Of a stretch of DNA of 64,000 nt, positions 10,641-63,316 are shown in pieces. The notes beneath the pieces are model-generated. The model was not told the origin of the DNA and did not search any database. It saw nothing but the letters and a program-made list of their open reading frames with translations. The translations under genes were made by a program, and so were the position numbers. Position 1 is the stretch's first letter; each line of letters begins with the position of its first letter. This stretch comes from Patescibacteria group bacterium (lineage in GTDB: Bacteria > Patescibacteriota > Minisyncoccia > UBA6257 > 2-01-FULL-56-20): assembly GCA_038063755.1 (NCBI GenBank), contig JBBTUL010000011.1, forward strand, positions 3,946 to 67,945, read 5' to 3'.

Positions 10641-13388
10641 GTGAACGTCAAAGCTAAAAAAGCGCTTTCGGAGCCGAATTTTAAGGACTCTGAGTTTGCA
10701 AGTTTCGCGAATAAACTAATCGAACGCGGGATTCTTGAGAAACCCGTTTCGGAGTTCGTTCGTGAATTGAACAAAGAGTCTTTCGGTGGTGATTCTCCGT
10801 GGCGGAGGATCAAGGTTGCCGATCTTACGAAGTCGGTGCTCGATTCTATTATTTGGACGAAGGATCGTCTTGATTTATTGAAGGATCACGTTCGACTTGG
10901 AGTCGAACTTGGTCCGGTCTATAAGATTCTTGCATATATCCCGAAGAAGATGGTTGATGCAAAGGCATCCGATCTTCGGGGAAAGAGCCGCAAGACTATT
11001 TTTCCTGAGCTGTCCGAGCCGGGCGTGGGGAGACTCGCAACCGACGAGGAAATCAAAAAGGGGCACATTGTCCCACTCAAGACATACACGCTAAAGAAGC
11101 CGTACGTTGTTTCGATTCCTGACCCTGAGAAATTCAGAGTGCTTTTCGTGAACGCGCCTCATCTTGGACTCGAATACAATCGAGTTCTTGCGGAGAACTT
11201 TTTGCGAAACGCGCTCGTTCGAGCGGAGAAGAAAAAGTTCGATGCAGTGGTTTTAACGGGTGCTCTTATGTGGCTCGATGCGAGTCGAGCGCATGGACAC
11301 CTTACCACTCACCGGGCGCTTTACTCCGGACTGGATTTTGATCCAGACGCGCTTGACCCTGGATACGGGGAAAAGGCAAAAAAAGTTCGCAAAGAAAAGA
11401 ATCCGAACGTTGTTACCTTCTCGACGCTTAGAGAGCGAGTGAAGATGGCGATGGGTGGATACAGGAAGGTTTTTCTTCTCGACGAGCGGAATCCTGTTTT
11501 CTCGGGTAAGGTCTACGTTTGCTTCGGAAAGCAGGAAGAAGAAATGATCGAGGCCGCGGCCCACGATCACATTCGATACGTCGTAGATAGGATGCGAGGA
11601 AGTGTCGATACCGAAAAGAAGGCCCTCGAGGCCGAGCTTAGATTCAAGTTGAGCGATGGGTCGAGTGGCGGTAAAGGGATTGACGAACTTCGTGAACGTA
11701 TCGACGAGCTCCGTCGTGAGGAGCAGAGAATGATTCAAACGAACGTTGATGTCATTGATAGGCGACGATTCGTTGACATCATTCGGACCCTCCTGATTTC
11801 CTGGTATAAGGAGGTAATTCCAAACTGTGAATTTGTTGCGCAAGGATCGACGGTTTTCTCGATCGGTGGAAAAACGATCCAAATCCTTCAAGAGGGCGAT
11901 GATTCGCTTTCCCGCGCGAAAATCGATAATGCCATGAAGGGGAGTTCGGGAAGAGCCCTTGGCGGGCGACTCTCGGACTTTGTTCTTGCTGCTGGACCGT
12001 ACAGTGTCGACGCTCGCGAGGGAATCATTGAGCGGGTTTCCGGGAAGAACCGTGAAACGACGCGTGTCTGGACGCTTCCTGTGGCAATCGACGTTGATTA
12101 TTTGCGGAATGCTCGACCGGAGCTTGTCCGGCGCGCTTCACCGCTCGAGAGATTGTTGGGAGATGCGGGCTTTAGTCCGGGAGTTTTCGAGCTTGGTTTT
12201 GTAAATGGTATTTGGGATTGCAGCGTTATCTCTCCAAGGACTTTCGGACACAAGGCACCGAAGGTGGTGGGTAGCACCCCATATATCTATCTCATTGCTG
12301 ATGGAGACTATCATTATGGTGCTCCTGCGAAAGACTGGATTTTTGATCCGGTAACCAGGTCCTATCTTCCTATTGAAGTTGCGGCATCGGAACTTTTCAT
12401 GAGAGAGTTCGTTGCCAAAGGAAAGGACCTTCCATTTTCTGGGTGGCATTGCGGAGGCGACTTCCTCCACGGGAAGCACTTCCCAACGCACCAGGCGAGA
12501 AATCCTGGAACGTTACCCTACGCGACCATCGCGAAAAGATTGAGCGAGGCCAGGAAGGATTCCGGCAAGGTTCAAGAGGTTTTGAATCTTATCGATAGTC
12601 AACTTCAGAAGAGGGGAGAGGTGTGGATGAACTCTCAGCTCGAAGAAGCGATCAGGATATCGATTCTTCCGAGAATTCCCTTCTTTGCTGCGGTTCTGAA
12701 GCACGCGAAGGATGCAGGAGTTCGGATGCGAGGGACCGCGGAGGTTTATACTGGGTCTTCTGATCTTGCGTCGATAGATATGGGATGTCTTAACGTTTTG
12801 GGCGGCAATCACGCGGAAAAGACGACTTTCGGAGAGTTTCTCGAAAGTCCTGTGATTGCGTGGATGATTCGCCTTGCTCTTGTCCCGAGCGGGTTTAGCC
12901 TCGAAGAGCTGGAACGGCTCGTTCGGGCGCCGCTTTTCGGACCGGAGAACATTGGATATGGTCTGCTCTCTGTGCCGGATGGGTACGAGTGGGCGATTCA
13001 TATTCGCCACGATCCTCCAGTCAAAGGTCCGCAGAACGGATGGACCTTGAGGGGAGTCGCGGAGAAATATCGCGAACGCGGTGACTATCCAAGGATTTTC
13101 ACTGGGCGGCACATGATCGCAATGAGTTCGGATATTCACCGAGCTGGAGCAAGTTTCGGACCTGATATCCATGTTGTTTCTGTGCCGGCGTGCACTGATG
13201 GCGATGCCTACGGTGAGCGTTTTGGCATGAGTCGGAACAACATCGGGTTTACCGTGGTCGGACTTCCGGTTCATGGACCGCTGGCTGGTCCTGTCCGGGT
13301 AATTCAGTTCACTCACGATATTTTGAGGAAGTATTTTGCGAATCCTTGGTCGATCGACTGGGACACCTTGTTCCGGGGAGCGATCTAG
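10641..13388 (+). CDS. Large hypothetical protein (915 aa); C-terminal half with ordered calcineurin-like metallophosphoesterase-like motifs
   Basis: GTG start 7 nt after AAGGAG. No recognisable family overall. Motifs in order: DGDYHYG (~12300), GGDFLHG (~12455), GGNHAE (~12801), HIRHD. An N-terminal weaker echo is present (FVNAPHLG ... FDAVVLTGALMWLD). Confidence 0.7.
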   Translation: MNVKAKKALSEPNFKDSEFASFANKLIERGILEKPVSEFVRELNKESFGGDSPWRRIKVADLTKSVLDSIIWTKDRLDLLKDHVRLGVELGPVYKILAYIPKKMVDAKASDLRGKSRKTIFPELSEPGVGRLATDEEIKKGHIVPLKTYTLKKPYVVSIPDPEKFRVLFVNAPHLGLEYNRVLAENFLRNALVRAEKKKFDAVVLTGALMWLDASRAHGHLTTHRALYSGLDFDPDALDPGYGEKAKKVRKEKNPNVVTFSTLRERVKMAMGGYRKVFLLDERNPVFSGKVYVCFGKQEEEMIEAAAHDHIRYVVDRMRGSVDTEKKALEAELRFKLSDGSSGGKGIDELRERIDELRREEQRMIQTNVDVIDRRRFVDIIRTLLISWYKEVIPNCEFVAQGSTVFSIGGKTIQILQEGDDSLSRAKIDNAMKGSSGRALGGRLSDFVLAAGPYSVDAREGIIERVSGKNRETTRVWTLPVAIDVDYLRNARPELVRRASPLERLLGDAGFSPGVFELGFVNGIWDCSVISPRTFGHKAPKVVGSTPYIYLIADGDYHYGAPAKDWIFDPVTRSYLPIEVAASELFMREFVAKGKDLPFSGWHCGGDFLHGKHFPTHQARNPGTLPYATIAKRLSEARKDSGKVQEVLNLIDSQLQKRGEVWMNSQLEEAIRISILPRIPFFAAVLKHAKDAGVRMRGTAEVYTGSSDLASIDMGCLNVLGGNHAEKTTFGEFLESPVIAWMIRLALVPSGFSLEELERLVRAPLFGPENIGYGLLSVPDGYEWAIHIRHDPPVKGPQNGWTLRGVAEKYRERGDYPRIFTGRHMIAMSSDIHRAGASFGPDIHVVSVPACTDGDAYGERFGMSRNNIGFTVVGLPVHGPLAGPVRVIQFTHDILRKYFANPWSIDWDTLFRGAI

Positions 13389-13491
13389 GTCGCAGATATT
13401 CGTACAGCCGAGATTTTCTCGGCTGTTTTTTATTGACAAAAAAAGCGATTCAGCTTTAAGCTGTGGTCAGCAATCTCCTTTCGGAGGGGAC

Positions 13492-14628
13492 ATGAAAATT
13501 TGCGGCAGAGATATCGGTATTCAAGGGGTCATCACGATATTCCTGATCTTCCTCGGCACGGTCTCACTGGTTGTATCGAGTACGCCGACCGAGATCCTGA
13601 TCCTGATGCTCTTGGCCTACGCCTCGAATGCGAGCTATTCGATGGTGAGCCGGTCTGCGGTGAGAACAAGCGTGCTTTACCACGCGCTTACCGTCTTCTT
13701 AAACAACACCTTGTTCTATTTGGTGTTGCACCGGCTTGTCCAGAACGATCTGAGCATTGTGCTCTTCATTCCGTATACCGTAGCCACGGTTTTCGGGAGT
13801 CAGAATGGCTCTCTCGCTTCGATGAGGATAGAGGAGAGGTTTGGCATCAAGGCGAACCCGGACAAGAAGGCGAAGCCTACGCCCCAGTCAGTCCTCGCTC
13901 AGAAGCTGTTGCTTGGTTTCGTGGGAGTGTTGGGTATCGTTGCGGCGGTTTTTACGCGCGACTTGAAGACCGCAGCGTTCGTCGCATTCCTCGCCCTCGC
14001 GGACAACCTTACCTTCTCGGTTTTGCGGCGCTCCAGGAATACCAACAACGTTGCATATCACATCATTGCATCGATCGCGAAAGGTACGGTGTGGTATTTG
14101 CTGTTCCGAGAACTCTCGCTTTCAAAAATGGCGCTCGGATTCTTTCCGCAGTACTGTTTCGGGTCCGTGCTTGGCGGGCTGATCGGTCAAGACGTGTCGT
14201 TGCGGATTGAGCGGTTGATAGGTGCATCCGCGGACGACCACCTAAAGTCCAAAGCGAAGCACTTCATGCCGACCGTTTCCCTCGCCATCCTTTCCCTTGG
14301 GGTGGTCGCGATCTCGTTTTTTGCGAACGAACCGAGCTTTGCCGTCTACCTTGCCTTGCTCTCCGGAGCCCAACAGGTGTCTTTCACCATCGTGAGTCGC
14401 TCCCGAAACCGAGGCCACATGGGCTACCACATGCTTGCTTCGATCTTGAGCAATGGGGTGTGGTTCTTGACGTTTCGCCAGGCGAACCTGGAACATTGGT
14501 CCCCAGACCTCTATCTACCATTTGCCCTCGGCGGAACTGCCGGAAGCATTAGCGGAGCCGGGATTTCGATGCAGATCGAACGCAAGCTTGGTATTTCCTC
14601 TGACGCGCATCTTGCGAAGCCTGCATAG
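13492..14628 (+). CDS. Integral membrane protein built from three ~115-aa internal repeats
   Basis: Each repeat has two TM helices, a (S/T)xVSRS(A/R)...Y(H)...L motif, then RIEERFGI / RIERLIGAS / QIERKLGIS. The ORF opens at 13336, but the likely start is ATG 13492 (MKICGRD). Confidence 0.65.
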   Translation: MKICGRDIGIQGVITIFLIFLGTVSLVVSSTPTEILILMLLAYASNASYSMVSRSAVRTSVLYHALTVFLNNTLFYLVLHRLVQNDLSIVLFIPYTVATVFGSQNGSLASMRIEERFGIKANPDKKAKPTPQSVLAQKLLLGFVGVLGIVAAVFTRDLKTAAFVAFLALADNLTFSVLRRSRNTNNVAYHIIASIAKGTVWYLLFRELSLSKMALGFFPQYCFGSVLGGLIGQDVSLRIERLIGASADDHLKSKAKHFMPTVSLAILSLGVVAISFFANEPSFAVYLALLSGAQQVSFTIVSRSRNRGHMGYHMLASILSNGVWFLTFRQANLEHWSPDLYLPFALGGTAGSISGAGISMQIERKLGISSDAHLAKPA

Positions 14629-14634
14629 TGATAC

Positions 14635-14660
14635 AACCCGACTTGCGTCGGGTTTTTTGT
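14635..14660 (+). terminator. Rho-independent terminator (AACCCGAC-ttgc-GTCGGGTT + T6)
   Basis: Perfect stem followed by TTTTTTG, just past the membrane-protein stop. Confidence 0.65.
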
Positions 14661-14727
14661 TTGGGACTTGCATTGCGGCAGGCGAGATGTTTAAGTCTTT
14701 ATAGTTGCGATTTAAAAGGAGGATTTT

Positions 14728-15468
14728 TTGTCTAGACGAAGAGTCGCCGTGTTCTTTGATTGGAACGGGACGCTCTTGAACGATCTGCCGCTAGTGTTCA
14801 AAAGCGTAATGGAGATTTTCAAACGGTATTCGGTTCGCCCTCCGAGCAAGAGGCAATACCTTGCGGAGATTAATGGAGACTTTATGAAATTCTACTGGGG
14901 ACATGGAATTCCTCCGAATAGATCCGCGTCCGACTTGAATAAGATCAGAAGGGGAATCATTTTTGAGAACTCAATTCCGACATCGCTCCATCAAAACGCG
15001 AGAAGGACTTTAAGCTCCCTGGAGAGAATGGGATTCACGCTTGCGCTTATCAGCGCAGAAGACTCCGCCCTTCTTGCTTCGGAAACCGCACGCTTTCACG
15101 TTCGCGAGAAGTTTAGCCTGATTCGTGGAGATTCTCGAAAGAAGACTCCGGTAATCAGGCGAGCGCTTCGCGAACTCGACGTTTCTCCAGAACGGGTGCT
15201 CTACGTTGGAGATACAGTTGATGATGTTGTTTCTGCAAGGAGAGCCGGAGTGCTCACCGTTGCATTCTCGAGGGGATATAATTCGAAGAGAAGGCTTGAG
15301 CGTGCCGCTCCGTCTTTCCTCATCGACAATCTCATTGATGTGCCAAGAATTGCCAAGCGGCTTTTTCTTGATGCAGGGTGCAATCTTGGAAGCAAGTCGG
15401 GGCGCGCGGTCTCGTCGCCTTGTTACGACGACCTACCCAGATTTGCGAGAAGCACCTTCCTCGACTGA
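14728..15468 (+). CDS. HAD-superfamily hydrolase
   Basis: TTG start 6 nt after AAAGGAGG. Motif I FFDWNGTL (DxN variant), motif IV VGDTVDDV. Confidence 0.75.
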   Translation: MSRRRVAVFFDWNGTLLNDLPLVFKSVMEIFKRYSVRPPSKRQYLAEINGDFMKFYWGHGIPPNRSASDLNKIRRGIIFENSIPTSLHQNARRTLSSLERMGFTLALISAEDSALLASETARFHVREKFSLIRGDSRKKTPVIRRALRELDVSPERVLYVGDTVDDVVSARRAGVLTVAFSRGYNSKRRLERAAPSFLIDNLIDVPRIAKRLFLDAGCNLGSKSGRAVSSPCYDDLPRFARSTFLD

Positions 15469-15560: not shown

Positions 15561-18254
15561 ATGGAAGCGGATCTTTCAAAGGTTCCGAAGAGATTGGTTG
15601 TTATGAACTGGAGTAACCCAGGAGGCAGTCCGAAGGTCTGCTTTCCTGGAGTACGGGCAGTACTTCCGTTCCCAGATTTGAGCGGTGCCCCGAGTATTGA
15701 AAAAGGGGTTGCCAAAATGAAAGAAGACGGGGCTTTTCTCGTCCAGTATCAGAAAGAAGACGTATCGTTTCCGGTTTCTCTCATTGTTCTCATCAAAGAA
15801 GCGAAGAACGTGGAAAAAGACGGAAGAAAAATCACGTTGATCATCGGAGAATTTACTCGAAGAGTTCTGTTGTCATCTCATTGCGATGAGGAGTTCGGAA
15901 GCAGTTATGAGTGGACTCCTGCGGAAGAGACTTGCTTTTCCGAAGAAGAGTTTGGCAGTCAGGAGACACAGGAAATGATTCAAGGTGTCGCAAGGTTAAG
16001 CGAAGAGCTTTTGGACCTCATGCAGCAGGGGAGCCCCAGTATTTTGCCCGAAATTTGGAAGCTTTGCGAAAAAAGAGAGTCAATCGGGGAATTTCTCGAC
16101 AATATTTCTTCGCCGCTCTTGAGCGTCTGCTCGATGAGTAAGGAAGTTGCCGATGCAGCCGAGGCGCTCATCTGTGAGCTGGGACATAAAAAGCGACTTG
16201 AAATTTTGTCTTTCATATATCCCATTGCCATTGATCTTCTGAAGAAGGAGAAGGATAGCAGCGAGACCTTTGATGGGCTTGTCGCGATTCCGTTTGACGT
16301 CAATGACGGGACAGAGCTTATCATGTTCCCCGGAACTCCATTTATGACCTCGCTTGGTGTAAAGGGATCGCTTTCCGAGGAAAGACTTCTTAAAAAGATA
16401 AGAGAAGACAAAGAAATGGTCTTCTATACCCCGAAAGACGGCATGATTCCGCAGATCGGAATTTTGGTTCATGTCAGGACGTCTCGGAATAACGGACTTA
16501 GATCAATTTCCTGCCGCGCGCTTCGACGCGTTGAAATACTTGATTACCAAATAGATCAAGGGATGTTTGGCGTAAAACACGGCGACGTAGATGAAATTCA
16601 GCTTGGTGAAAAAGAATTTCTAAGTGCCGAAGTGCAGAAAAAGATTTCCGATCTCAAGGCTTTTAGCGAAAGATTTCTGAGTTTTTTCAGGGCGGATGAA
16701 TCGGGTGGAGATGTTGAAATAGACGAACGGCATATCAAGAATTCGGAAAGCGTCGAGAGTCTTGGGAAATACCTTGACGTCCTTGCGCAACAACTTGTTT
16801 TTATTTTTCCACCCATAGACTCGATAATTACATCATCGCTTCGGGAACTGATTTGCGAGCTTGATCAAAAGAAGCGGATCGAGATTCTCTTGAACGCCTA
16901 TCCGCTCGCCATAGAATTTGCGAAAAAAACGGTAAGCGGGGAAAGCTTGATCATTGCTCCTTCGCCTGATCTTCTTGCGAATCCTTCGCAGCATGCCGAA
17001 CGACGAACCGCGTTCAAGCTCGAGGATTTTGCAAATGATTCCGCAGAAGTGGAAGTTCCTCTCTCGGATAAGCCTGGTCAACGACATCGTTCTCCAGAAG
17101 TCGAGACGTTCTATCGTTTTCTTCGGAAGAACGTTATTGGCGAAGGCGGACAAAAGCGTGCGATCAAGCGCCTTACTACTAGATTTGAGGTTTATCGCTC
17201 GCTTTTCCGGAAGCACCGCAAGCCGATAGGAACATTTCTATTTTTGGGTCCCTCGGGAGTCGGCAAGACAGAGCTTGCCGAACGGGTGGCAGAATTTCTT
17301 CTTGGACAGAAAACGTCTGTCACAAAAATTGCCTGCGGTGAGTATACAGAAGGGCATCAGGTTTCGAGGCTCATCGGCTCGCCGCCCGGATACGTTGGAT
17401 CGGACGATCGGCCGCTCCTTGCTCAGGAGCGAGTTGATAGGTATGGCATTGAGGCCGAAATCAAATGGCTGCAATCTCAACTAAACGAACCGAATTTGCC
17501 ACCGGAGAAAGAGAAGGTTTTGCTCGAGAGACTGAAAATTTTCGGATCTCATCTCGGGCACAAGCAGGGTTCGCGGTCAGGGGAGAGCTCAAAAGCAATC
17601 CGTACGGCGGATCTTGCGAGGGCCTATCCGGTTCTCTCGGTTCTCCTTGTCGACGAAATTGACAAAGCGCACGAAAATCTTTTAAAGTTTTTTCTTGAGG
17701 TTTCTTCAAAGGGGGTCGCGCAGCTTTCGAACGGTGAGGAAGTTGACCTTTCGAACTCGTTCATTATCTTCACGAGCAATCATGGATCGAAAAAAATCGC
17801 ACAGATTCTTCATGGAAAGGTCACGAGAGTAGGTTTCGGAGACGGCCACCAAGAAAAGTCTGTTTACGAGGTTGCCATGGATGAACTGAGGAGAGTCCTT
17901 CCGCCGGAACTTATCGGACGGATTCAAGATGACATTGTTGTTTTTTCGGAGTTGAGCCACGAAGAGATGCGGAAGATTCGAGACCTGAGATTTTCCGAGC
18001 TCGATCTGCAAATTCGGGCGAAGATGCCCAATCTTTCGGTCGAGTTTGATGGGGCTGCAAAAGAATTCATCTTTTCGAAATCCTCCGATCACCCGGAGTA
18101 CGGGGCACGAGTCCTGGAGGCGAAGATTGATCACTATGTCATCGAACCTTTAGCAGAACAGCTGAATAATGGCGAGCTAAAGGACGGCGACAAGGTTTTG
18201 GGGGTCCTCCTTGCGGGGGACGAGGAGATGGAGATTCGTTTCAAGAAGGTGTAA
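15561..18254 (+). CDS. Atypical AAA+ protein: novel ~520-aa N-terminal region plus a single ClpA/ClpB D2-like ATPase module
   Basis: Walker A FLFLGPSGVGKTELAE, GSPPGYVGSDD, Walker B LLVDEIDKAHENLLKFFLEV, sensor IIFTSNHGS and the D2 small domain are all ClpA/B-like. A ~60-aa coiled-coil insert sits between Walker A and Walker B. The N-terminus has two LICEL(G/D)xKKR(L/I)EIL..YP(I/L)AI repeats. Confidence 0.8.
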   Translation: MEADLSKVPKRLVVMNWSNPGGSPKVCFPGVRAVLPFPDLSGAPSIEKGVAKMKEDGAFLVQYQKEDVSFPVSLIVLIKEAKNVEKDGRKITLIIGEFTRRVLLSSHCDEEFGSSYEWTPAEETCFSEEEFGSQETQEMIQGVARLSEELLDLMQQGSPSILPEIWKLCEKRESIGEFLDNISSPLLSVCSMSKEVADAAEALICELGHKKRLEILSFIYPIAIDLLKKEKDSSETFDGLVAIPFDVNDGTELIMFPGTPFMTSLGVKGSLSEERLLKKIREDKEMVFYTPKDGMIPQIGILVHVRTSRNNGLRSISCRALRRVEILDYQIDQGMFGVKHGDVDEIQLGEKEFLSAEVQKKISDLKAFSERFLSFFRADESGGDVEIDERHIKNSESVESLGKYLDVLAQQLVFIFPPIDSIITSSLRELICELDQKKRIEILLNAYPLAIEFAKKTVSGESLIIAPSPDLLANPSQHAERRTAFKLEDFANDSAEVEVPLSDKPGQRHRSPEVETFYRFLRKNVIGEGGQKRAIKRLTTRFEVYRSLFRKHRKPIGTFLFLGPSGVGKTELAERVAEFLLGQKTSVTKIACGEYTEGHQVSRLIGSPPGYVGSDDRPLLAQERVDRYGIEAEIKWLQSQLNEPNLPPEKEKVLLERLKIFGSHLGHKQGSRSGESSKAIRTADLARAYPVLSVLLVDEIDKAHENLLKFFLEVSSKGVAQLSNGEEVDLSNSFIIFTSNHGSKKIAQILHGKVTRVGFGDGHQEKSVYEVAMDELRRVLPPELIGRIQDDIVVFSELSHEEMRKIRDLRFSELDLQIRAKMPNLSVEFDGAAKEFIFSKSSDHPEYGARVLEAKIDHYVIEPLAEQLNNGELKDGDKVLGVLLAGDEEMEIRFKKV

Positions 18255-57218: not shown

Positions 57219-58190
57219 ATGACAAATAAGTTTTCCTCACTCTTTTCAAATAGGCGATTCTCCCTCTGGCTTGGAGTATTTTGTGCGGTAAGCGTCGTCT
57301 TTTCGTTTTGGCTTCTTATGTTCCGCATTCCAGCCATCCGGCGCGAAGCGCAACAGAGTTTTTACCACCAATATCCGCTCCTCGACCCCGCACGGAACTT
57401 CGTTGCCCAGGATGACTTCATCGTCAATCTTCAACCGCTTCGCGAGGAGCTGCGCGATCTCGTAAAATGGGAGTATCCTCGATCCGTTTCGCTCTATTTC
57501 GAGTTTCTGAACACCGGCGCGAACATCGCGATCAACCAAGACCTGAATGTTTGGCCTGCTTCATTGCCGAAAGTGCCGATGGCGATGGCGGTCTTGAAAA
57601 AAGTCGAGCAAGGGGTTTGGTCAATGGGTCAAAAATTCGAACTTTTGGAGTCCGACAAGGACGCGAACTACGGATCGCTTTTCAACGTGCCCTCGGGAAC
57701 CATTCTTTCGCTCGAGAGACTTTTATCCGAGATGCTTTCACGTTCCGACAATACGGCGTATAAGGTTTTTCTGCGCAATGTCAGCACAAGGGAACTGGAT
57801 GATGTTATTTTGGAGCTCGGGTTGGAAGATCTTTTCACGGAGGACGGGTTGGTGAGTTCAAAAGAGTATTCGCGCCTTTTCCGTTCCATCTACACTTCGA
57901 GCTTCCTCAAGCGTGAATACTCGACCCGTATCCTCGAGTTGCTCGCCAAATCCGACTTCAAGGACTTTCTCGCTTCAGGACTACCATCCGAAATTATATT
58001 CCCGCATAAGTTCGGGATAGACCGGACAAGAGACGCATATCTTGATGCCGGCATCGTTTACGTTCCCGACAGGCCCTACCTCATTACGGTTGCGGTTCAG
58101 GGAGAAGGCGGCCCTGGCGAAGAAGAGAAGGTCCGGGAATTTATGAAAGAGGTTTCTCGAAAGGCCTACGAATACATCTCGGCGCAATAA
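57219..58190 (+). CDS. Membrane-anchored class A beta-lactamase-like serine hydrolase (PBP-like)
   Basis: N-terminal TM helix. SxxK (SLPK), SDN (SRSDNTAYKV) and KTG-like (HKFG) motifs in canonical order. Confidence 0.7.
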   Translation: MTNKFSSLFSNRRFSLWLGVFCAVSVVFSFWLLMFRIPAIRREAQQSFYHQYPLLDPARNFVAQDDFIVNLQPLREELRDLVKWEYPRSVSLYFEFLNTGANIAINQDLNVWPASLPKVPMAMAVLKKVEQGVWSMGQKFELLESDKDANYGSLFNVPSGTILSLERLLSEMLSRSDNTAYKVFLRNVSTRELDDVILELGLEDLFTEDGLVSSKEYSRLFRSIYTSSFLKREYSTRILELLAKSDFKDFLASGLPSEIIFPHKFGIDRTRDAYLDAGIVYVPDRPYLITVAVQGEGGPGEEEKVREFMKEVSRKAYEYISAQ

Positions 58191-58192
58191 CG

Positions 58193-61100
58193 GTGCCCCA
58201 TGACCACATGAGCATTTTCTGGGAGAAAAACAAAGAGGGAAACATGATCGACGCGTTGGGTCGGAGGAAGAGCCTCTCTTTTATTTTCTCGCTGGGCCGC
58301 CGAAATACCCGTGGTGTGGTTGACCTCCGACTGCCCTTTCGCCGACGATATCCCGTCATAGCCGCATCCCTGCTCCTTGTAACCGTCATAGCCGCTTTCG
58401 GCGCGCGATCACTCCTTACGAAGGCGGAGGTGACCGATTTTCATCCGCTTACGTGTCTCGGGAGCTGGGAACATACATCCCGAGCCGAGGGGAAACCAGA
58501 AGCTCTTAACGATGCCACACTTCTCACGGCGGATGTTTCCGCGATATTTACGCAACCGACGAGCCAAATTTTTTGCGGCAACTTCATTCCTGATGATTTT
58601 AAAGAAGCAGGCACGATAACGAGTGTGGGATTGACCTTTACGTGGAAGATTGAAGGAGGGGATCAAGAGGGAAGTGTTGACCAATCCTCATCGGAAGAAA
58701 CGGTATTGCCTCCGGCAGGCGAAACGAATTTGGAGATGCCGACATCATCGGCACTTCTCGCGCCGAAGATAAAATTCTTCAGAGTTGCAAAAGCCGAGGA
58801 GGTGGTTCCACCGGAGCCGATGCCCGCGCCGGTTGAGACCGTCCCCGAAGAAACCCCGACGCCCACCCCAACCCCAGAGCTGCCTTCACCTTCCCCGGAA
58901 GTTATTCAAGACGGCGTGTCCGAACCGGAGGCGGTTCCTGTCGAAGAAAGCATCGTTCCGGAAAATGACGCTACTCCCGACGCGACATCTGGAGAAGTCC
59001 TCGGAGAATCCCAAGAGGCGGTTCCCGTAACCTCTTCGACGGAGAATGATGCGGGTAATGGTGTCGTGGATGAAAACCAAAACCCGGAAATTCCGTCGTT
59101 TGCTCCTTCCACTCCGCCGTTTCTCCGCGTGAGCTACAGTCTTGACGGTACGAACTGGTTTTCACTCGCCGACGTTTCCAGGGAGATGCTTGCCCAACTT
59201 ACGGTTTCCATTCCGCTTACTTCGTGGAGCGATCTAAAAAAACTTCAGATAGGGATCGAGGGAGTCCCTGCGGCGCTTCCGGTGCTTCCTAGAGTTCTCC
59301 TCGACGGGATGCTTCTCGAGGTGCACTACGAGATACCGCCGCTTTTCACGAACAACGAGCCGGACGAAGATATTGTTCCCGCTCCACAGGGATCGCTTCT
59401 TCCCGTTGTTCCCGTACTGCCTGCCATGGAAGGAGCGAGCACCGGCACTCCGCCTTCTTTCGGAGGAGATGAGTCGCCGAGTTTCGAGCTTGATATGGAT
59501 TCGCTCACGCCTATTCCGGAAAGTGAACTGCCTCCGCTTTCGTTTCACCATCCCGCGACAAGGAACTCTCTTTTTGGAAAAATAGCGAAGTGGTTGGGGG
59601 TCACCGGTTCCGCATTCGCACAGCAAAACGGAGAAACCCCGCCGCCGCTCCCCACGGCAGAAAACCCGATCATCGCGAGAGTTTTTAACCACGGGGACGA
59701 TGAGTTGGATATCCTTCCCCAGGTACTTCTTTCCAACAACCGCCTTAGGGTTAATGTTCCTCAACCGGCGGATCAGTTTGCTCCCGGGAAATATCTCCTC
59801 CGCGTCTGGGTGTGGCGCAACGGGAACATTTATTACACGGAAAACTCGTTTACCTGGGGCGTTCTCGCGATGAATCCGAACAAATTCGTTTATCTTCCGG
59901 GAGAGACATCGAAGATTGGCATCGCGGTTCTCGACGAGGGAGGTGACATGGTCTGCGATGCCAATGTCCGGCTCGAGATCACCACGCCCTCCAGCACGGT
60001 GCGCACGCGCGCGACGAGTGACGGAAGTATTGTCGTGAACGAGGAATGTAATCTCAAGGGATTTACGGAGAGACCGGACTACGAAACCGATTATCAAGTA
60101 GAAGAGCCGGGTATCTATCAGACGAGGCTTACGGCGACAACGGAGAACGGAACGCATACCATATACGATTCATTCGAAGTGCGTGAGTCAGTTTCATTCG
60201 ATATCGAGCGAAAATCGGCCACGCGCATTTACCCTCCCACACCGTATCCCGTCCGCATTGCGATCAAGACAACAGAGGCGTTTTCCGGAGATATCGAAGA
60301 GCGCGTACCGCTCTCCTTCGAGGTGAAGCACATATCCCACGGAGGACAAGTTGTCCGCCGGAACGAGGACCAGGTTATTCGATGGGCGGTCGATCTCCCT
60401 GCGGGAGGAACAATCGAGCTTCTGTACGATTATCTTGCTCCCGAAGTAAGTCCCCAGTTCTACCTTCTCGGCCCCCTTCGGGTCGGTACTTTCTCCGAGA
60501 CCCGGCGTTGGCAGATCGCCGCCGACGCGATCGCTTCAAACTCGGCGAGGACGTTCTACAGCGTTACCAATAATGCGGGAAGACTCATGTGGGCTACGGG
60601 AGCATCGAATTCAACGGGAGCCGAAATCGCCGGTCCGGTCGGAACGGCTGCCACCTCCTCTTTTGTGAAAGCGGCACATGGACCGACCAGGGACGAGATT
60701 TTGGCCGGAATGATAAAACGTGATGGACTGCTTGCATTGTCGCTCGTTATCGGAAACCAGGATGCCGCAGGGGATGCGGTGCTTCAGTTTGATCAGGCAA
60801 GCGTCACTTCGGCTCAAGCATGCGATGCGGTGACATTCGGTTCCTGTTGGCGCGCATTTGATATCGCTTACGAACAACTATCGGGAGAGGGAATGGTCGC
60901 ATTTGCGAGCACGACGGCATCGCGGCTCGCGTATCGTACCTGGGACGGTACAAATTGGTCTCCGGCGACAACGAGCGCTCCGAGCGTTGTGAATATGGGG
61001 GGTACCGGCGCAATCCGGTGGGTAAGGCTTATTCCAAGAGGGGAAATGCTCAAAGGAAGCCGCTCGGACGAAATACTTGTTATCACTTCGGATGCCAACT

Positions 61101-63316
61101 CCGATATCTTCGCAGGTATTTGGAATGGTTCGGCATGGACCGCCACAACAACCATCACCGCCGCCGCCTCGACGTTCCACACACAGAATTTTGACGGAGC
61201 ATGGGAGGAATCCTCCGGAGACGCGATGGTTGTCTGGGCGGAGGGAACAGCGGCGACCACCACTCCGTATCGATACAAGAAATGGACGCGATCCTCGACG
61301 ACATGGGCTTCTTCGGGGTTGCCCCTGCCGGCGATGGGAGCATCGCATATCGGACACTGGGTTGCGGCAAAGGCGGCGCCTATCGCGGGCAAAAATCATA
61401 TTGCGGTTATTACAAGCTCGGCGACCGCCGTCGGGAATAATTGCGGCACCGGAACCAACTGCCGAGCTCAACCATTTATTTGGGACGGTTCAGGTTTTAC
61501 GATGGGAAACGAATGGACGTCGCAAGAACCCGTCTGGCAACAAGCCGTGAACGTTGCGGTTGAATCGGTGAATACAAACGTACAGGTCTTTTACGCATCT
61601 TCTATTGCGCAGAGCACCACCGTTGTAAGTTCCTATGAAACATGGATAGAAGGAACGGGATTTTCCGCCGTAACCACTCTTGCCGGGTCAATGGGAGATG
61701 ATCTTGCGGGGGTACAAACGACGGCGCACCCGAATTCCACCGAAGTGTTTGTGACGGTTGAAGATGTTGATGCCGACTGTAACGGCATTGCGTGGAACGG
61801 GGCGACGACGACGGCCGCATGGGATATAACGGGGTGTAACTCCGCCGGAGAGACCGCGCTTGCTCCTCTGTCTCACACGGCGCAACCGAGCGAAGGATCC
61901 GCATTTTGGGTGGTAGCGAAGCCCTACTCGCCATGGCAGAGGAACTGGCGTTTCTACGGAGACATTACGGAAAACGACCCGGACAACACTGCGGACGTCT
62001 TGGGGACGAGCGAAAACGGATCCCCGGCGATTTCCCAGGAAGGATTCGCCCGGCTCCGAATGCAGTTTGTGGAATTAACGAACATTGCCCAGACCGATGC
62101 CCGAAAGAAGATCCAATGGACCACGGAAAACCCGGACTATTCGACATCCACCTGGACCGACGTGGGAGATACGTCGGAAACAGGAGCGGTGTGGAGATAT
62201 GCGACAGCGGCGGAAACATGCGCCAACTGTAGTGACAACACCACAATCGGAGCGACTCGTCTTACGGGAAGTTCGCAGTCCGGTACTTATATTTCGGACA
62301 AGGACGCGGCTGCGGGAACAGGAATGGATCACACTGCGCTTGCGCTCTCGGAATACGATTATCCGATTAAGGCGGAAAACGCAACCTCGGGTACCACATA
62401 CTATTTCCGCGCGTACGACAACGACCAGCTCACTCCCGTCTTTCGGGAGCAGGACAGCGACGGATCCAACGACTGCTCAAGCGCGGCATGTGTGTATCCA
62501 AGCGCCACCGTTCAAGCGCCAGCCAATAACCTTCCGACACTTTCCGCGCTCTTACTAAACGGAGGGTCGGCTATCACTGTTATAGAAAATACCTCGACTT
62601 CAATTGCGGTTACGGGTACTGCCACGGATCTCGATGGAAACGCGGACATTTCTTTCGCGACGGGAACCATCTACCGGTCGGGAGTCGGCGGGGGAGCCTC
62701 ATGCACGAGCAACGAGAATAATTGTTATCGCGTCGCATCCTCTTCATGTGCCAAATCAAACTGTTCGGGAAACAGTTGTGATTTCACCTGCACCGCGAAG
62801 ATACAGTATTTTGCGGACCCTACCGACTCGGGAGCGTTCTCTGCGGAAAACTGGCTTGGACAAATCACTGCGACGGATGCCGCGGGAGCGACGGGAGTTT
62901 CGACAACCGTCTCCGGTGTCGAACTCAACACGCTTTTTTCGCTGAATATCACCAATTCAATTAATTTCGGAAGTCTCCTGCCGGGAGGGGATAGCGGTGC
63001 CGTAAATCAGATTGCAACAACCACGAACACCGGGAATGCGGCGATCGATGTCGAATTCTCCGGGACAAATATGGTTTTCGGCGCGAATACCATCGCCGTA
63101 GGAAATGAAAGATACGCGACAAGCACCTTCACCTATTCGAGTTGTACGGTTTGTACCGCTCTTACCACCATTGCCACCGCCTACGAACTTGATCTTGCGA
63201 AACCTACCTCGACGGCTGTTGTGGAAGACACCGTTTTTTGGGGGTTAAGCGTACCGAACGGGAACCCGCCGGGAAGCTATACCGGTACGAGCACGTTTAC
63301 CGCGGTGACGGACTAA
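58193..63316 (+). CDS. Giant surface protein (1707 aa): TM anchor, Pro/Thr/Glu-rich linker, WDG(S/T)xW repeat region, C-terminal Cys-containing NNCYR domain
   Basis: GTG start. TM near aa 50-72. PEPMPAPVETVPEETPTPTPTPELPSPSPE linker. Repeats YRTWDGTNWS / IWNGSAWT / IWDGSGFT. C-terminal domain with the CTSNENNCYR motif. Confidence 0.8.
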   Translation: MPHDHMSIFWEKNKEGNMIDALGRRKSLSFIFSLGRRNTRGVVDLRLPFRRRYPVIAASLLLVTVIAAFGARSLLTKAEVTDFHPLTCLGSWEHTSRAEGKPEALNDATLLTADVSAIFTQPTSQIFCGNFIPDDFKEAGTITSVGLTFTWKIEGGDQEGSVDQSSSEETVLPPAGETNLEMPTSSALLAPKIKFFRVAKAEEVVPPEPMPAPVETVPEETPTPTPTPELPSPSPEVIQDGVSEPEAVPVEESIVPENDATPDATSGEVLGESQEAVPVTSSTENDAGNGVVDENQNPEIPSFAPSTPPFLRVSYSLDGTNWFSLADVSREMLAQLTVSIPLTSWSDLKKLQIGIEGVPAALPVLPRVLLDGMLLEVHYEIPPLFTNNEPDEDIVPAPQGSLLPVVPVLPAMEGASTGTPPSFGGDESPSFELDMDSLTPIPESELPPLSFHHPATRNSLFGKIAKWLGVTGSAFAQQNGETPPPLPTAENPIIARVFNHGDDELDILPQVLLSNNRLRVNVPQPADQFAPGKYLLRVWVWRNGNIYYTENSFTWGVLAMNPNKFVYLPGETSKIGIAVLDEGGDMVCDANVRLEITTPSSTVRTRATSDGSIVVNEECNLKGFTERPDYETDYQVEEPGIYQTRLTATTENGTHTIYDSFEVRESVSFDIERKSATRIYPPTPYPVRIAIKTTEAFSGDIEERVPLSFEVKHISHGGQVVRRNEDQVIRWAVDLPAGGTIELLYDYLAPEVSPQFYLLGPLRVGTFSETRRWQIAADAIASNSARTFYSVTNNAGRLMWATGASNSTGAEIAGPVGTAATSSFVKAAHGPTRDEILAGMIKRDGLLALSLVIGNQDAAGDAVLQFDQASVTSAQACDAVTFGSCWRAFDIAYEQLSGEGMVAFASTTASRLAYRTWDGTNWSPATTSAPSVVNMGGTGAIRWVRLIPRGEMLKGSRSDEILVITSDANSDIFAGIWNGSAWTATTTITAAASTFHTQNFDGAWEESSGDAMVVWAEGTAATTTPYRYKKWTRSSTTWASSGLPLPAMGASHIGHWVAAKAAPIAGKNHIAVITSSATAVGNNCGTGTNCRAQPFIWDGSGFTMGNEWTSQEPVWQQAVNVAVESVNTNVQVFYASSIAQSTTVVSSYETWIEGTGFSAVTTLAGSMGDDLAGVQTTAHPNSTEVFVTVEDVDADCNGIAWNGATTTAAWDITGCNSAGETALAPLSHTAQPSEGSAFWVVAKPYSPWQRNWRFYGDITENDPDNTADVLGTSENGSPAISQEGFARLRMQFVELTNIAQTDARKKIQWTTENPDYSTSTWTDVGDTSETGAVWRYATAAETCANCSDNTTIGATRLTGSSQSGTYISDKDAAAGTGMDHTALALSEYDYPIKAENATSGTTYYFRAYDNDQLTPVFREQDSDGSNDCSSAACVYPSATVQAPANNLPTLSALLLNGGSAITVIENTSTSIAVTGTATDLDGNADISFATGTIYRSGVGGGASCTSNENNCYRVASSSCAKSNCSGNSCDFTCTAKIQYFADPTDSGAFSAENWLGQITATDAAGATGVSTTVSGVELNTLFSLNITNSINFGSLLPGGDSGAVNQIATTTNTGNAAIDVEFSGTNMVFGANTIAVGNERYATSTFTYSSCTVCTALTTIATAYELDLAKPTSTAVVEDTVFWGLSVPNGNPPGSYTGTSTFTAVTD

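Follow-up and report, generated by a model that had tools for sequence, protein, structure and literature searches.

Gene and family

Does the C-terminal half of a large hypothetical protein encoded by a small Patescibacteria genome form a calcineurin-like metallophosphoesterase (MPE), and if so, on which phosphoester does it act? The window, which is the whole 64,000-nucleotide stretch of DNA analysed here, comes from a genome assigned to Patescibacteria/Paceibacterota and contains the following features at the locus in question.

10641–13388, + strand: complete open reading frame (ORF) of 915 amino acids with a GTG start
13404–13436, + strand: intrinsic-terminator-like hairpin with a 10-bp stem, six GC pairs and a T-run
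13486–14628, + strand: gene for a multi-pass membrane protein of 380 amino acids with three ~115-residue repeats, of no known family

The best explanation of the observations described below is that residues ~548–915 are a very divergent, catalytically intact calcineurin-like MPE domain of a lineage-restricted family, and this explanation is likely to be correct. The first-pass annotation had interpreted the C-terminal half as an Mre11-type MPE domain with doubled motif spacing and an internal duplication; the domain is supported by the present analysis, whereas the doubled spacing and the duplication are not. Although the MPE superfamily itself is already very well known, a hitherto unannotated family thereby gains a testable biochemical assignment as a two-metal phosphoesterase.

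An AGGAG sequence is located 8 nt upstream of the GTG start codon, the homologues start at the same alignment column, and the terminator-like hairpin begins 16 nt past the stop codon. The product is identical to the NCBI entry 'MAG: hypothetical protein AAB495_02480 [Patescibacteria group bacterium]'. Its sequence contains no transmembrane segment, signal peptide or Walker A motif, and it is predicted to be a soluble, cytoplasmic protein of ~105 kDa; a chain of 915 residues is a large investment for so small a genome. The family comprises at least 187 representative clusters at 50% identity and is almost confined to Patescibacteria (Paceibacterota/Parcubacteria) metagenomes, with one GTDB record labelled Saccharibacteria, and all of its named members are called 'hypothetical'.

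Motifs of the C-terminal domain

The C-terminal domain and its elements are as follows, all on the + strand.

12282–13385, + strand: putative catalytic MPE domain, residues 548–915, assigned from Foldseek matches in PDB and BFVD and from ligand-column conservation
12300–12320, + strand: motif I, DGDYHYG (D556, H558, G560), residues 554–560, after strand 548–554
12453–12473, + strand: motif II, GGDFLHG (D607, G611), residues 605–611, after strand 599–604
12474–12788, + strand: mostly helical insertion of ~105 residues in the II–III spacer, with 'HFPT', 'RGE.W' and Q666
12801–12818, + strand: motif III, GGNHAE (G722, N723, H724), residues 721–726, after strand 717–719
12999–13013, + strand: motif IV, HIRHD (candidate ligand H790, conserved R789), residues 787–791, with strand 784–789 preceding H790
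13125–13142, + strand: motif V, SSDIHR (D831, H833), residues 829–834, after strand 825–829

The four motifs already named in the first-pass annotation, DGDYHYG, GGDFLHG, GGNHAE and HIRHD, are present where it placed them and in canonical order. SSDIHR is a fifth motif found in this analysis and corresponds to motif V (GHxH) of MPEs, so that all five motifs occur in canonical order, each directly after a β-strand predicted by DSSP in the AlphaFold model. Relatives have SGHIHF or GDxHR/F as motif V, giving a family consensus of G-D/H-x-H, and the 915-residue protein has Asp instead of His as the first ligand and Ser instead of the family Gly. An Asp residue at the first position of motif V can still bind metal.

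The spacers I–II and II–III had been described as about twice the usual length. The I–II spacer is 51 residues long compared with 40 in E. coli SbcD, a ratio of ~1.3, and the II–III spacer is 116 residues long compared with 35, a ratio of ~3.3. The excess between motifs II and III is due to the helical insertion, which contains helices 627–639, 644–658 and 663–692 and in which Q666 (nt 12636–12638) is present in 114/114 homologues.

A loose regular expression for the five motifs matches 5 of 20,000 shuffled versions of the 915-residue protein (~2.5 × 10⁻⁴), and a three-motif expression, GDxH...GD...GNH, matches 9 of 20,000. Among the 81 six-frame ORFs of at least 150 amino acids in the window, the one that matches the motif expression is the 915-residue ORF itself, and no canonical MPE was found by regular-expression search elsewhere in the window or in related loci. 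The low rate in shuffled sequences argues against the alternative that the motifs are a chance string. In another form of the same alternative, the C-terminal domain would be a catalytically dead MPE-like scaffold comparable with the eukaryotic polymerase B-subunits and Vps29, which are MPE-derived folds that have lost the ligands and have a scaffold role. The Asp residue in motif V would be in keeping with such a scaffold, as would the results of the profile searches described next.

Sequence and profile searches

No MPE match was obtained for the 915-residue protein in Pfam, NCBIfam, PHROGs or PADLOC at E ≤ 10. A Pfam scan of 50 diverse family members gave no match to Metallophos at E ≤ 1 (0/50) and returned only scattered helix-turn-helix (HTH) matches in N-terminal extensions; apart from these, no Pfam or NCBIfam domain is found in family members. 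No MPE was recovered from the PDB by sequence search, whether the query was the single protein or a profile of 21 or 114 sequences, and matches to SIR3 and TFIIS in these searches were rejected as spurious. Comparison of the C-terminal half with E. coli SbcD by hhalign (E = 0.2) and hmmsearch was not significant, with only motif I in register, and an SbcD-seeded homology search recovered only homologues at least 78% identical, leaving the profile too shallow to help. A tblastn search of 50,697 phage records gave no match, and nothing relevant was found in the literature on Patescibacteria or the CPR with the terms metallophosphoesterase or calcineurin-like.

The first-pass annotation had regarded the absence of a relaxed-threshold match to any MPE family as a refutation of its proposal. 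No such match was found, and this test is too strict: the relationship can be recognised from fold and conservation alone. Since no MPE profile matches, the 915-residue protein is placed in a new divergent family within the known MPE superfamily, outside the existing Pfam families. A well-known catalytic superfamily has thus been missed by every HMM library, and yet it is recognisable through a deep-alignment model combined with conservation.

Conservation and covariation of ligand positions

Conservation was analysed in an alignment of 114 homologues that are 19–64% identical to the query. In motif I, D556 is conserved in 99/109, H558 in 107/109 and G560 in 102/109 sequences, and the residue at position 556 is Cys in ten distant family members ('GCxH'). 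D607 of motif II is invariant (113/113), and position 610 is occupied by Gln or His, with Gln in most relatives. In motif III, H724 is present in all 114 sequences, G722 in 112 and N723 in 102, with Asp replacing N723 in ten; the following residue, Ala in the 915-residue protein, is variable family-wide, so that the acidic residue of G-N-H-(D/E) is not kept. In motif V, G830 is found in 111 and H833 in 113 of the 114 homologues, and position 831 is Asp in 96 and His in 13. The polar columns of the C-terminal half with at least 80% conservation are D556, H558, D607, Q654, Q666, D710, N723, H724, E735, D801, D831, H833 and D855, and the MPE ligand positions D556, H558, D607, N723, H724, D831 and H833 are all among the best-conserved of them. 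The near-invariance of these positions at 19–64% identity suggests selection on the site and speaks against a dead scaffold.

H790 of motif IV is invariant in the close subfamily and is found in only 47/114 sequences family-wide, which at first sight would favour loss of the site. However, the loss of H790 is paired with the gain of an Asp residue at position 606, immediately before the motif II Asp, where the 915-residue protein has Gly: 47 sequences have H790 only, 66 have D606 only, one has neither and none has both, so that all but one of the 67 sequences without H790 have Asp at position 606. On a neighbour-joining tree built without these two columns, the switch has occurred ~3–4 independent times. 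Such mutual exclusion would be predicted for two positions that contribute to the same metal site. Both this switch and the replacement of the motif I Asp by Cys are natural variations of a dinuclear site.

Predicted structure and fold matches

The first-pass annotation had called for a structure prediction, and the model recovers the MPE fold. AlphaFold gave a pLDDT of 94.2 and a pTM of 0.93 from the 114-sequence alignment. A model from 21 sequences had a pLDDT of 65, and Foldseek returned only noise and no MPE with it; taken alone, that model would wrongly have argued against an MPE, and alignment depth is therefore decisive. With the deep model, the best 50 PDB matches are all of the MPE fold (PolD DP1, Mre11/SbcD and purple acid phosphatase), the best being PolD DP1 (6hmf/5ihe) with an E-value of 1.5 × 10⁻⁴ and a probability of 0.99. 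Matches in the viral BFVD database have E-values from 1 × 10⁻⁶ to 5.6 × 10⁻⁹, and those that are named are metallophosphatases, 'DNA polymerase II small subunit' proteins or SbcD, with one exception, the top match, which is labelled only 'Hint domain N-terminal region'. The whole protein was used as the query, and the placement of the match on residues 548–915 rests on the motifs. The E-values are modest and the TM-scores low (0.3–0.6 on target), which is compatible with a core fold that carries large insertions. The uniformity of the PDB matches, together with the MPE-type names of all but one of the named BFVD matches, is a further argument against a chance motif string or dead scaffold, an alternative that is very improbable.

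Relation to known metallophosphoesterases

PolD DP1 structures (5IHE, 6HMF and 8PPT) are the best PDB folds, with E-values of 1.5 × 10⁻⁴ to 2 × 10⁻³ and probabilities of 0.97–0.99, and phage 'DNA polymerase II small subunit' proteins are among the best BFVD matches. DP1 is the 3′–5′ proofreading exonuclease and small subunit of the archaeal D-family polymerase, and in members of its family an OB fold precedes the MPE domain and the protein is complexed with the catalytic subunit DP2. DP1 shares with the 915-residue protein an MPE core with DxH, GD, GNH and GxxH motifs, but the likeness is at the fold level only, with no similarity at the sequence level. Unlike DP1, the present protein is 915 residues long, has the ~105-residue helical insertion in its II–III spacer and, upstream, a ~385-residue non-catalytic domain, and comes from a bacterial host in which a DP2 partner is not expected; PolD is not known from bacteria.

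Mre11/SbcD structures (4M0V, 4LTY, 3THN, 9BI5 and 7ZR1) match with E-values of 6.6 × 10⁻⁴ to 3 × 10⁻². The motif V 'DIHRA' of the 915-residue protein resembles 'GHIHRA'/'HIHRA' of SbcD, and motif II of the Mre11 type is GDxxH, the same shape as 'GDFLH'. In contrast to the SbcD homologues listed, all of which contain PF00149, PF12850 and PF12320, the 915-residue protein has none of these domains, nor does it have a Rad50/SbcC-like ATPase, and it differs further in the 116-residue II–III spacer and the Asp at the first motif V position. A fused Rad50–Mre11 protein was rejected because there is no Walker A motif, and no SbcC-like gene is found among the neighbours read by Pfam.

Purple acid phosphatases (1UTE, 1QHW and 7OV8) give the top PDB TM-scores on target (0.40–0.43) and the lowest rmsd, and share the two-metal β-sandwich core. 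They act on monoesters, are either secreted or located in lysosomes, and bind Fe(III) through a Tyr ligand, but neither such a Tyr motif nor a signal peptide was identified in the 915-residue protein. The lariat debranching enzyme Dbr1 has Cys for the motif I Asp, as in the ten distant family members, which is a lead only: Dbr1 is not among the best 50 PDB fold matches, and the 915-residue protein keeps the Asp.

N-terminal half and the proposed duplication

The features of the N-terminal half are as follows.

10854–10985, + strand: helical module 'WTKDRLDLLK...IPKKMVDAKASDLRG', residues 72–115, with helices 74–86, 91–96 and 102–113
11100–12245, + strand: large domain, residues ~154–535, well conserved and with no metal-ligand signature
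11145–11168, + strand: FVNAPHLG, residues 169–176
11238–11279, + strand: FDAVVLTGALMWLD, residues 200–213
11529–11816, + strand: three long helices inserted in the large domain, residues 297–338, 345–363 and 371–392, from DSSP of the model

The first ~115 residues are predicted to form small helical modules that may bind DNA. W72 is invariant, and the family profile has a weak match (E = 0.69), spanning exactly residues 72–115, to the GcrA DNA-binding domain 5yiu_A; one family member matches PF07750 GcrA at 0.0086, and some members have extra N-terminal HTH_11/HTH_24 domains. Residues 72–115 are possibly a GcrA/Myb-like HTH, a tentative assignment.

Since the large domain has no metal-ligand signature, it is considered non-catalytic, and its fold may be MPE-like and degenerate. 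The first-pass annotation had proposed an internal duplication with one degenerate copy in the N-terminal half, pointing to FVNAPHLG; we regard this as unproven. According to the duplication hypothesis, the protein consists of tandem MPE folds, the N-terminal copy of which has been inactivated and now packs against the other as a pseudo-dimer partner. The N-terminal half begins with strand 164–171, helix 187–197 and strand 202–206, which corresponds to the strand-helix-strand start of the MPE fold, and the strands end in the motif-like sequences 'NAPHLG' and 'DAVVLTGAL..D' ('TGNLLD' in the family consensus). The homodimeric state of many MPEs is also in keeping with the hypothesis. An MPE origin of the N-terminal half is itself weakly suggested by one observation, a pairwise match of '...AEKKKFDAVVLTGALMWLD' to the helix-strand-motif II region of SbcD (E = 0.0014–0.006 in a single comparison), for which the hhalign probability is 6–16% and the register is unconvincing beyond motif II. 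Against the hypothesis, hhalign finds no similarity between the two halves with shallow or deep alignments in local or global mode (E = 0.1–0.6, wrong register), no member has the first motif I Asp in its N-terminal half, no His column there reaches 80% conservation, and H174 of FVNAPHLG is His in only 26/104 sequences. The case for and the case against a duplication are evenly balanced, and a duplication would be compatible with a divergent C-terminal MPE domain. The N-terminal domain may be analogous to the polymerase B-subunits and Vps29, with the difference that the 915-residue protein would have an active copy in the same chain.

Proposed mechanism, substrate and membrane partner

We infer that the residues of the motifs meet at a single two-metal site, for which the covariation of H790 and D606 is indirect support. 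In the arrangement suggested by MPEs of known structure, D556, H558, D607 and H833 would coordinate one metal ion, and the second would be bound by N723, H790, D831 and D607, the last of these as the bridging ligand. Phosphate binding and stabilisation of the transition state would fall to H724 and H610, the latter being Gln in most relatives, and a metal-bridging hydroxide would attack the phosphoester. The ~105-residue helical insertion with its invariant Gln probably caps the site and sets the substrate specificity, and residues ~154–535 would form a conserved non-catalytic domain, perhaps the inactivated copy of the pseudo-dimer.

The substrate may be a nucleic-acid phosphodiester, in which case the enzyme would be a Mn²⁺/Fe-dependent nuclease; this is a tentative assignment, somewhat short of an even chance. 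It is favoured because the best structural neighbours are nucleases, because 'GDFLH' of motif II and 'DIHRA' of motif V resemble the Mre11/SbcD forms, and because there is a weak GcrA-like HTH signal together with HTH fusions in some members.

The conserved neighbour of the gene is a membrane protein gene and not a DNA-metabolism gene. The gene for the triple-repeat membrane protein adjoins the 915-residue homologue in 9/9 of the nearest distinct loci with a judgeable flank, although the other neighbours differ among these nine loci, and in two of them it is on the opposite strand in convergent orientation. Between loci, the partner is more conserved than the 915-residue protein (52% versus 43% and 86% versus 63% identity). 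These observations favour a rival hypothesis in which an active MPE is not a nuclease but works with the membrane protein at the inner membrane face, on the phosphoester of a small molecule, a lipid-linked compound or an envelope precursor, in a manner comparable with LpxH, purple acid phosphatases and GpdQ. The position of purple acid phosphatases among the best folds, with the top PDB TM-score on target, and the near-confinement of both families to Patescibacteria are consistent with this hypothesis. However, the enzyme has neither a transmembrane segment nor a signal peptide, the strong terminator-like hairpin separates the two genes, and the partner is absent within 6–8 kb of the distant family members at loci L015 and L016 and was not found within ~1.8 kb of downstream sequence at L013. 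The partner, moreover, has no recognisable function: it has no match in Pfam, NCBIfam, PADLOC or PDB, and its homologues form 47 clusters with no informative name or domain, the few named ones being from Patescibacteria lineages. Action on such a substrate together with the membrane protein is rather unlikely.

Whatever the substrate of the putative MPE, the conserved pairing with a membrane protein provides a lead into unexplored Patescibacteria biology. One speculative and distinctly improbable extension is that the two proteins form an undescribed Patescibacteria-specific two-gene module, in which a single-chain pseudo-dimer with a dead N-terminal and a live C-terminal MPE and a unique helical lid would act as a membrane-coupled nuclease or phosphodiesterase. 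Such a module could, for example, process imported nucleic acid or nucleotides; Patescibacteria largely lack de novo nucleotide synthesis.

A role of the 915-residue protein as a defence-system component was rejected, given the lack of a PADLOC match and the housekeeping neighbours. The neighbours read by Pfam encode an FAD oxidase, a membrane protein, a HAD hydrolase and a ClpB-like AAA+ protein.

Motif string and conservation of the 915-aa protein

The first-pass annotation had proposed that the C-terminal half (C-half) of a 915-aa protein carries calcineurin-like metallophosphoesterase (MPE) motifs in canonical order. All of the motif strings that it quoted lie where it had placed them within a single open reading frame (ORF), and a fifth element that it had overlooked, SSDIHR, appears to correspond to motif V (GHxH) of MPEs, since relatives have SGHIHF or GDxHR/F at that spot. 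The ORF and its motifs are as follows.

10641–13388, plus strand: ORF of 915 aa, GTG start with AGGAG 8 nt upstream
11145–11168, plus strand: FVNAPHLG, aa 169–176
11238–11279, plus strand: FDAVVLTGALMWLD, aa 200–213
12300–12320, plus strand: DGDYHYG, aa 554–560, motif I
12453–12473, plus strand: GGDFLHG, aa 605–611, motif II
12801–12818, plus strand: GGNHAE, aa 721–726, motif III
12999–13013, plus strand: HIRHD, aa 787–791, motif IV
13125–13142, plus strand: SSDIHR, aa 829–834, motif V

Of 20,000 shuffled versions of the protein, 5 match a loose five-motif pattern and 9 a three-motif pattern. The window has 81 six-frame ORFs that reach 150 aa or more, and the motif pattern is found in this one only; a chance origin of the motif string is unlikely. 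The motif I–II and II–III spacers had been described as about twice the usual length, which does not hold: the I–II spacer is nearly normal (51 residues, compared with 40 in E. coli SbcD as read from the genome), and the II–III spacer is more than 3 times the SbcD value (116 and 35 residues, respectively) because of a helical insertion.

An alignment of 114 family members that are 19–64% identical to the query has a mean column identity of 16%. Near-invariant columns are scarce, and the canonical MPE positions are among them.

Conservation of canonical MPE positions (sequences with the residue)
D556: 99 of 109, Cys in the remaining 10
H558: 107 of 109
G560: 102 of 109
D607: 113 of 113
G722: 112 of 114
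N723: 102 of 114
H724: 114 of 114
G830: 111 of 114
D831: 96 of 114, His in 13
H833: 113 of 114

Polar columns conserved at 80% or more in the C-half are D556, H558, D607, Q654, Q666, D710, N723, H724, E735, D801, D831, H833 and D855, and those in the N-terminal half (N-half) are just N186, E265, E299, N368 and D484, with no His. In alignment A2, Cys replaces Asp in motif I ('GCxH') in the 10 most distant members (P0119, P0120, P0127, P0132, P0137, P0139, P0148, P0150, P0152 and P0160), which are about 20% identical and lack the first ~140 residues. The Dbr1 debranching enzyme has the same Asp-to-Cys substitution in motif I.

Covariation between motifs II and IV

The motif IV residue H790 is His in just 47 of the 114 sequences of alignment A2. 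Directly ahead of the bridging motif II Asp, position 606 holds an Asp in 66 of the 67 sequences that lack H790 and in 0 of the 47 with it, so that 47 sequences have the His only, 66 the Asp only, 1 neither and 0 both. Sequences bearing H790 have Gly or Ala ahead of the motif II Asp, and 66 of the 67 others read 'DD'. In the window protein these positions (aa 606, nt 12456–12458; aa 790, nt 13008–13010) are 184 residues apart. Across the family a metal-capable side chain is swapped reciprocally between them, as expected if both residues face the same metal. A rough neighbour-joining tree that omits columns 606 and 790 gives about 3–4 independent switches of state, and columns 678, 680 and 815 likewise follow the H790/D606 split. 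This coordinate-free covariation supports, although it does not prove, a common site for motifs II and IV.

Predicted fold

The 114-sequence alignment yields a model with a pLDDT of 94.2 and a pTM of 0.93, in which all five motifs are preceded by a β-strand in canonical order (residues 548–554 before motif I, 599–604 before motif II, 717–719 before motif III, 784–789 before motif IV and 825–829 before motif V). The best 50 PDB matches of this model in a Foldseek search are all MPE-fold proteins, headed by PolD DP1 (6hmf and 5ihe; E 1.5e-4, probability 0.99), with Mre11/SbcD and then purple acid phosphatases behind it. A Foldseek search of BFVD gives 28 matches at E ≤ 1e-3, and each named one is a metallophosphatase, a 'DNA polymerase II small subunit' or an SbcD-like protein, except for the top one, 'Hint domain N-terminal region'. 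TM-scores on the target are low (0.3–0.6), the matches being to the whole-protein query with the aligned query residues not given. A first model of the same protein from a 21-sequence alignment has a pLDDT of 65, and its Foldseek matches are noise with no MPE among them, indicating that the shallow alignment alone would have led to a false refutation of the MPE fold (pLDDT 65 versus 94).

Family membership and placement in the MPE superfamily

The protein is identical to GenBank 'MAG: hypothetical protein AAB495_02480 [Patescibacteria group bacterium]'. In a word-indexed search 21 homologues came up; each is ~930 aa long, none has a Pfam domain, and every named one is 'hypothetical'. When the family profile was used for an exhaustive HMMER search, 187 cluster representatives matched at E ≤ 0.001 and 135 at E ≤ 1e-30; among the matches listed, the majority are ~820–1270 aa long and span most of the profile, alongside some shorter, partial ones. 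The gene is present in seven GTDB species representatives, six labelled Paceibacterota or Parcubacteria and one, L011 (CAYIUL010000017.1), which has the gene together with that of the membrane protein described below, labelled 'uncultured Candidatus Saccharibacteria'; the last label could stem from mislabelling or a binning problem, or the distribution could genuinely be wider.

No MPE family in Pfam, NCBIfam, PHROGs or PADLOC matches the protein at E ≤ 10, Metallophos matches none of 50 diverse family members at E ≤ 1, and no MPE was found among PDB sequences with the single sequence, the 21-sequence profile or the 114-sequence profile. The first-pass annotation had taken such a lack of profile matches at relaxed thresholds as grounds for rejecting its own proposal, but the conservation, fold and covariation evidence indicates that this criterion is too strict. 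Motifs, conservation, fold matches and the 606/790 covariation agree that residues 548–915 are an MPE domain, carrying a helical insertion of ~105 residues (612–716) with the invariant Q666.

Motifs I–IV and the fold are those of the calcineurin-like MPE superfamily, motif V usually having Asp in place of its first His, and the predicted domain almost certainly works like its members and descends from it. Unlike Mre11/SbcD, the 915-aa protein lacks their capping/C-terminal domain, and there is no Rad50/SbcC partner among the window neighbours. PolD DP1, the best fold match, has an OB fold and the DP2 partner as its accessories. Since no existing family HMM is matched and the Mre11/SbcD accessories are missing, the proteins are best filed as a lineage-restricted, divergent new family with a new architecture inside the known superfamily. 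A Patescibacteria family that had no annotation thus gains one that is solid and testable; its chemistry is familiar, and the ligand swap and a conserved partner of no known family add value.

Proposed catalytic site and domain layout

By analogy with solved MPEs, metal 1 would be held by D556, H558, D607 and H833, and metal 2 by D607, N723, H790 and D831, with H724 and H610 acting on the phosphate. The best structural neighbours, which are nucleases, the Mre11/SbcD-like variants of motifs II and V and the possible HTH modules lean towards nucleic acid, and we tentatively predict that the substrate is a nucleic-acid phosphodiester.

Residues 1–115 form small helical modules. Residues 72–115 (WTKDRLDLLK...LRG) weakly match the GcrA DNA-binding domain (E 0.69), and one relative matches Pfam GcrA at 0.0086, so that a GcrA-like DNA-binding module may be regarded as a lead only. 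Some longer members (>1000 aa) in alignment A3 have an extra N-terminal winged-helix/HTH (HTH_11, 4e-7; HTH_24, 1e-5; HVO_A0261_N, 3e-5). The domain at residues ~154–535 is well conserved, contains an insertion of three long helices (297–392) and shows no metal-ligand signature. The enzyme has no hydrophobic segment of membrane-spanning length, and a Walker A motif is absent from the 915-aa protein.

The N-half had been suggested to be a degenerate copy arising from internal duplication. Its profile matches the helix–strand–motif II segment of SbcD (E ~1e-3 for a single comparison; hhalign probability 6–16%), with the family consensus 'nalreAerrgvdavvltGnlld' pairing with SbcD 'WLLETAQTHQVDAIIVAGDVFD', and the order of its secondary-structure elements in the model is compatible with the start of the MPE fold. 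Against this, profile–profile comparison finds no similarity between the N-half and the C-half, H174 is His in just 26 of 104 sequences, and the motif I Asp is missing from the N-half in all members. G176 is invariant. A degenerate MPE copy is plausible, about as likely as not.

Membrane partner and gene neighbourhood

Downstream of the enzyme gene lie the following features.

13404–13436, plus strand: strong terminator-like hairpin directly 3' of the enzyme stop codon
13486–14628, plus strand: 380-aa membrane protein with three ~115-aa repeats and several hydrophobic segments
14635–14664, plus strand: strong intrinsic-terminator-like hairpin directly 3' of the membrane-protein gene

Two segments, 'S.xSRSxxxxxxxYH' and 'G..G...S..IE...G', recur in every repeat of the membrane protein. 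The protein has no match in Pfam, NCBIfam, PADLOC or PDB, and its family comprises 47 clusters that carry no useful annotation; the handful of members with a name come from Patescibacteria lineages. Conservation is higher in this protein than in the enzyme, and its homologue directly adjoins the enzyme gene in 9 of 10 distinct close-relative loci, on the convergent strand in L005 and L011, while the other neighbours vary. The tenth close locus, L013, shows no homologue within ~1.8 kb of downstream sequence, which is uninformative because just that stretch downstream of the enzyme gene is covered. No partner gene was seen in the vicinity of two distant members of the enzyme family (L015 and L016), and the hairpins behind both genes suggest that enzyme and partner may be separate transcription units. 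A small-molecule or lipid phosphoesterase linked to this membrane partner is somewhat less likely than a nucleic-acid phosphodiesterase, the reading towards which we lean.

Around the enzyme gene, the window carries housekeeping genes, which encode GlmS, BipA, a Sua5/YrdC protein, an FAD-linked oxidase, a HAD hydrolase, a ClpB-like AAA+ protein, EF-P and MnmA. In the 897-aa ClpB-like protein (15561–18254, plus strand), AAA_2 and ClpB_D2-small are confined to the last ~350 residues, and no Pfam domain matches the first ~540, which look internally repetitive; the L002 orthologue is just 657 aa long. In L001, a related Paceibacterota contig, a diversity-generating-retroelement-like pair (bAvd and an RVT_1 reverse transcriptase; 13935–15339), ~3 kb downstream of the enzyme homologue, is probably unrelated to the enzyme family. 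A 1707-aa ORF without a Pfam domain (58193–63316, plus strand) follows a beta-lactamase-family gene (57219–58190), and in this region the G+C content of the window climbs from ~0.47 to 0.55.
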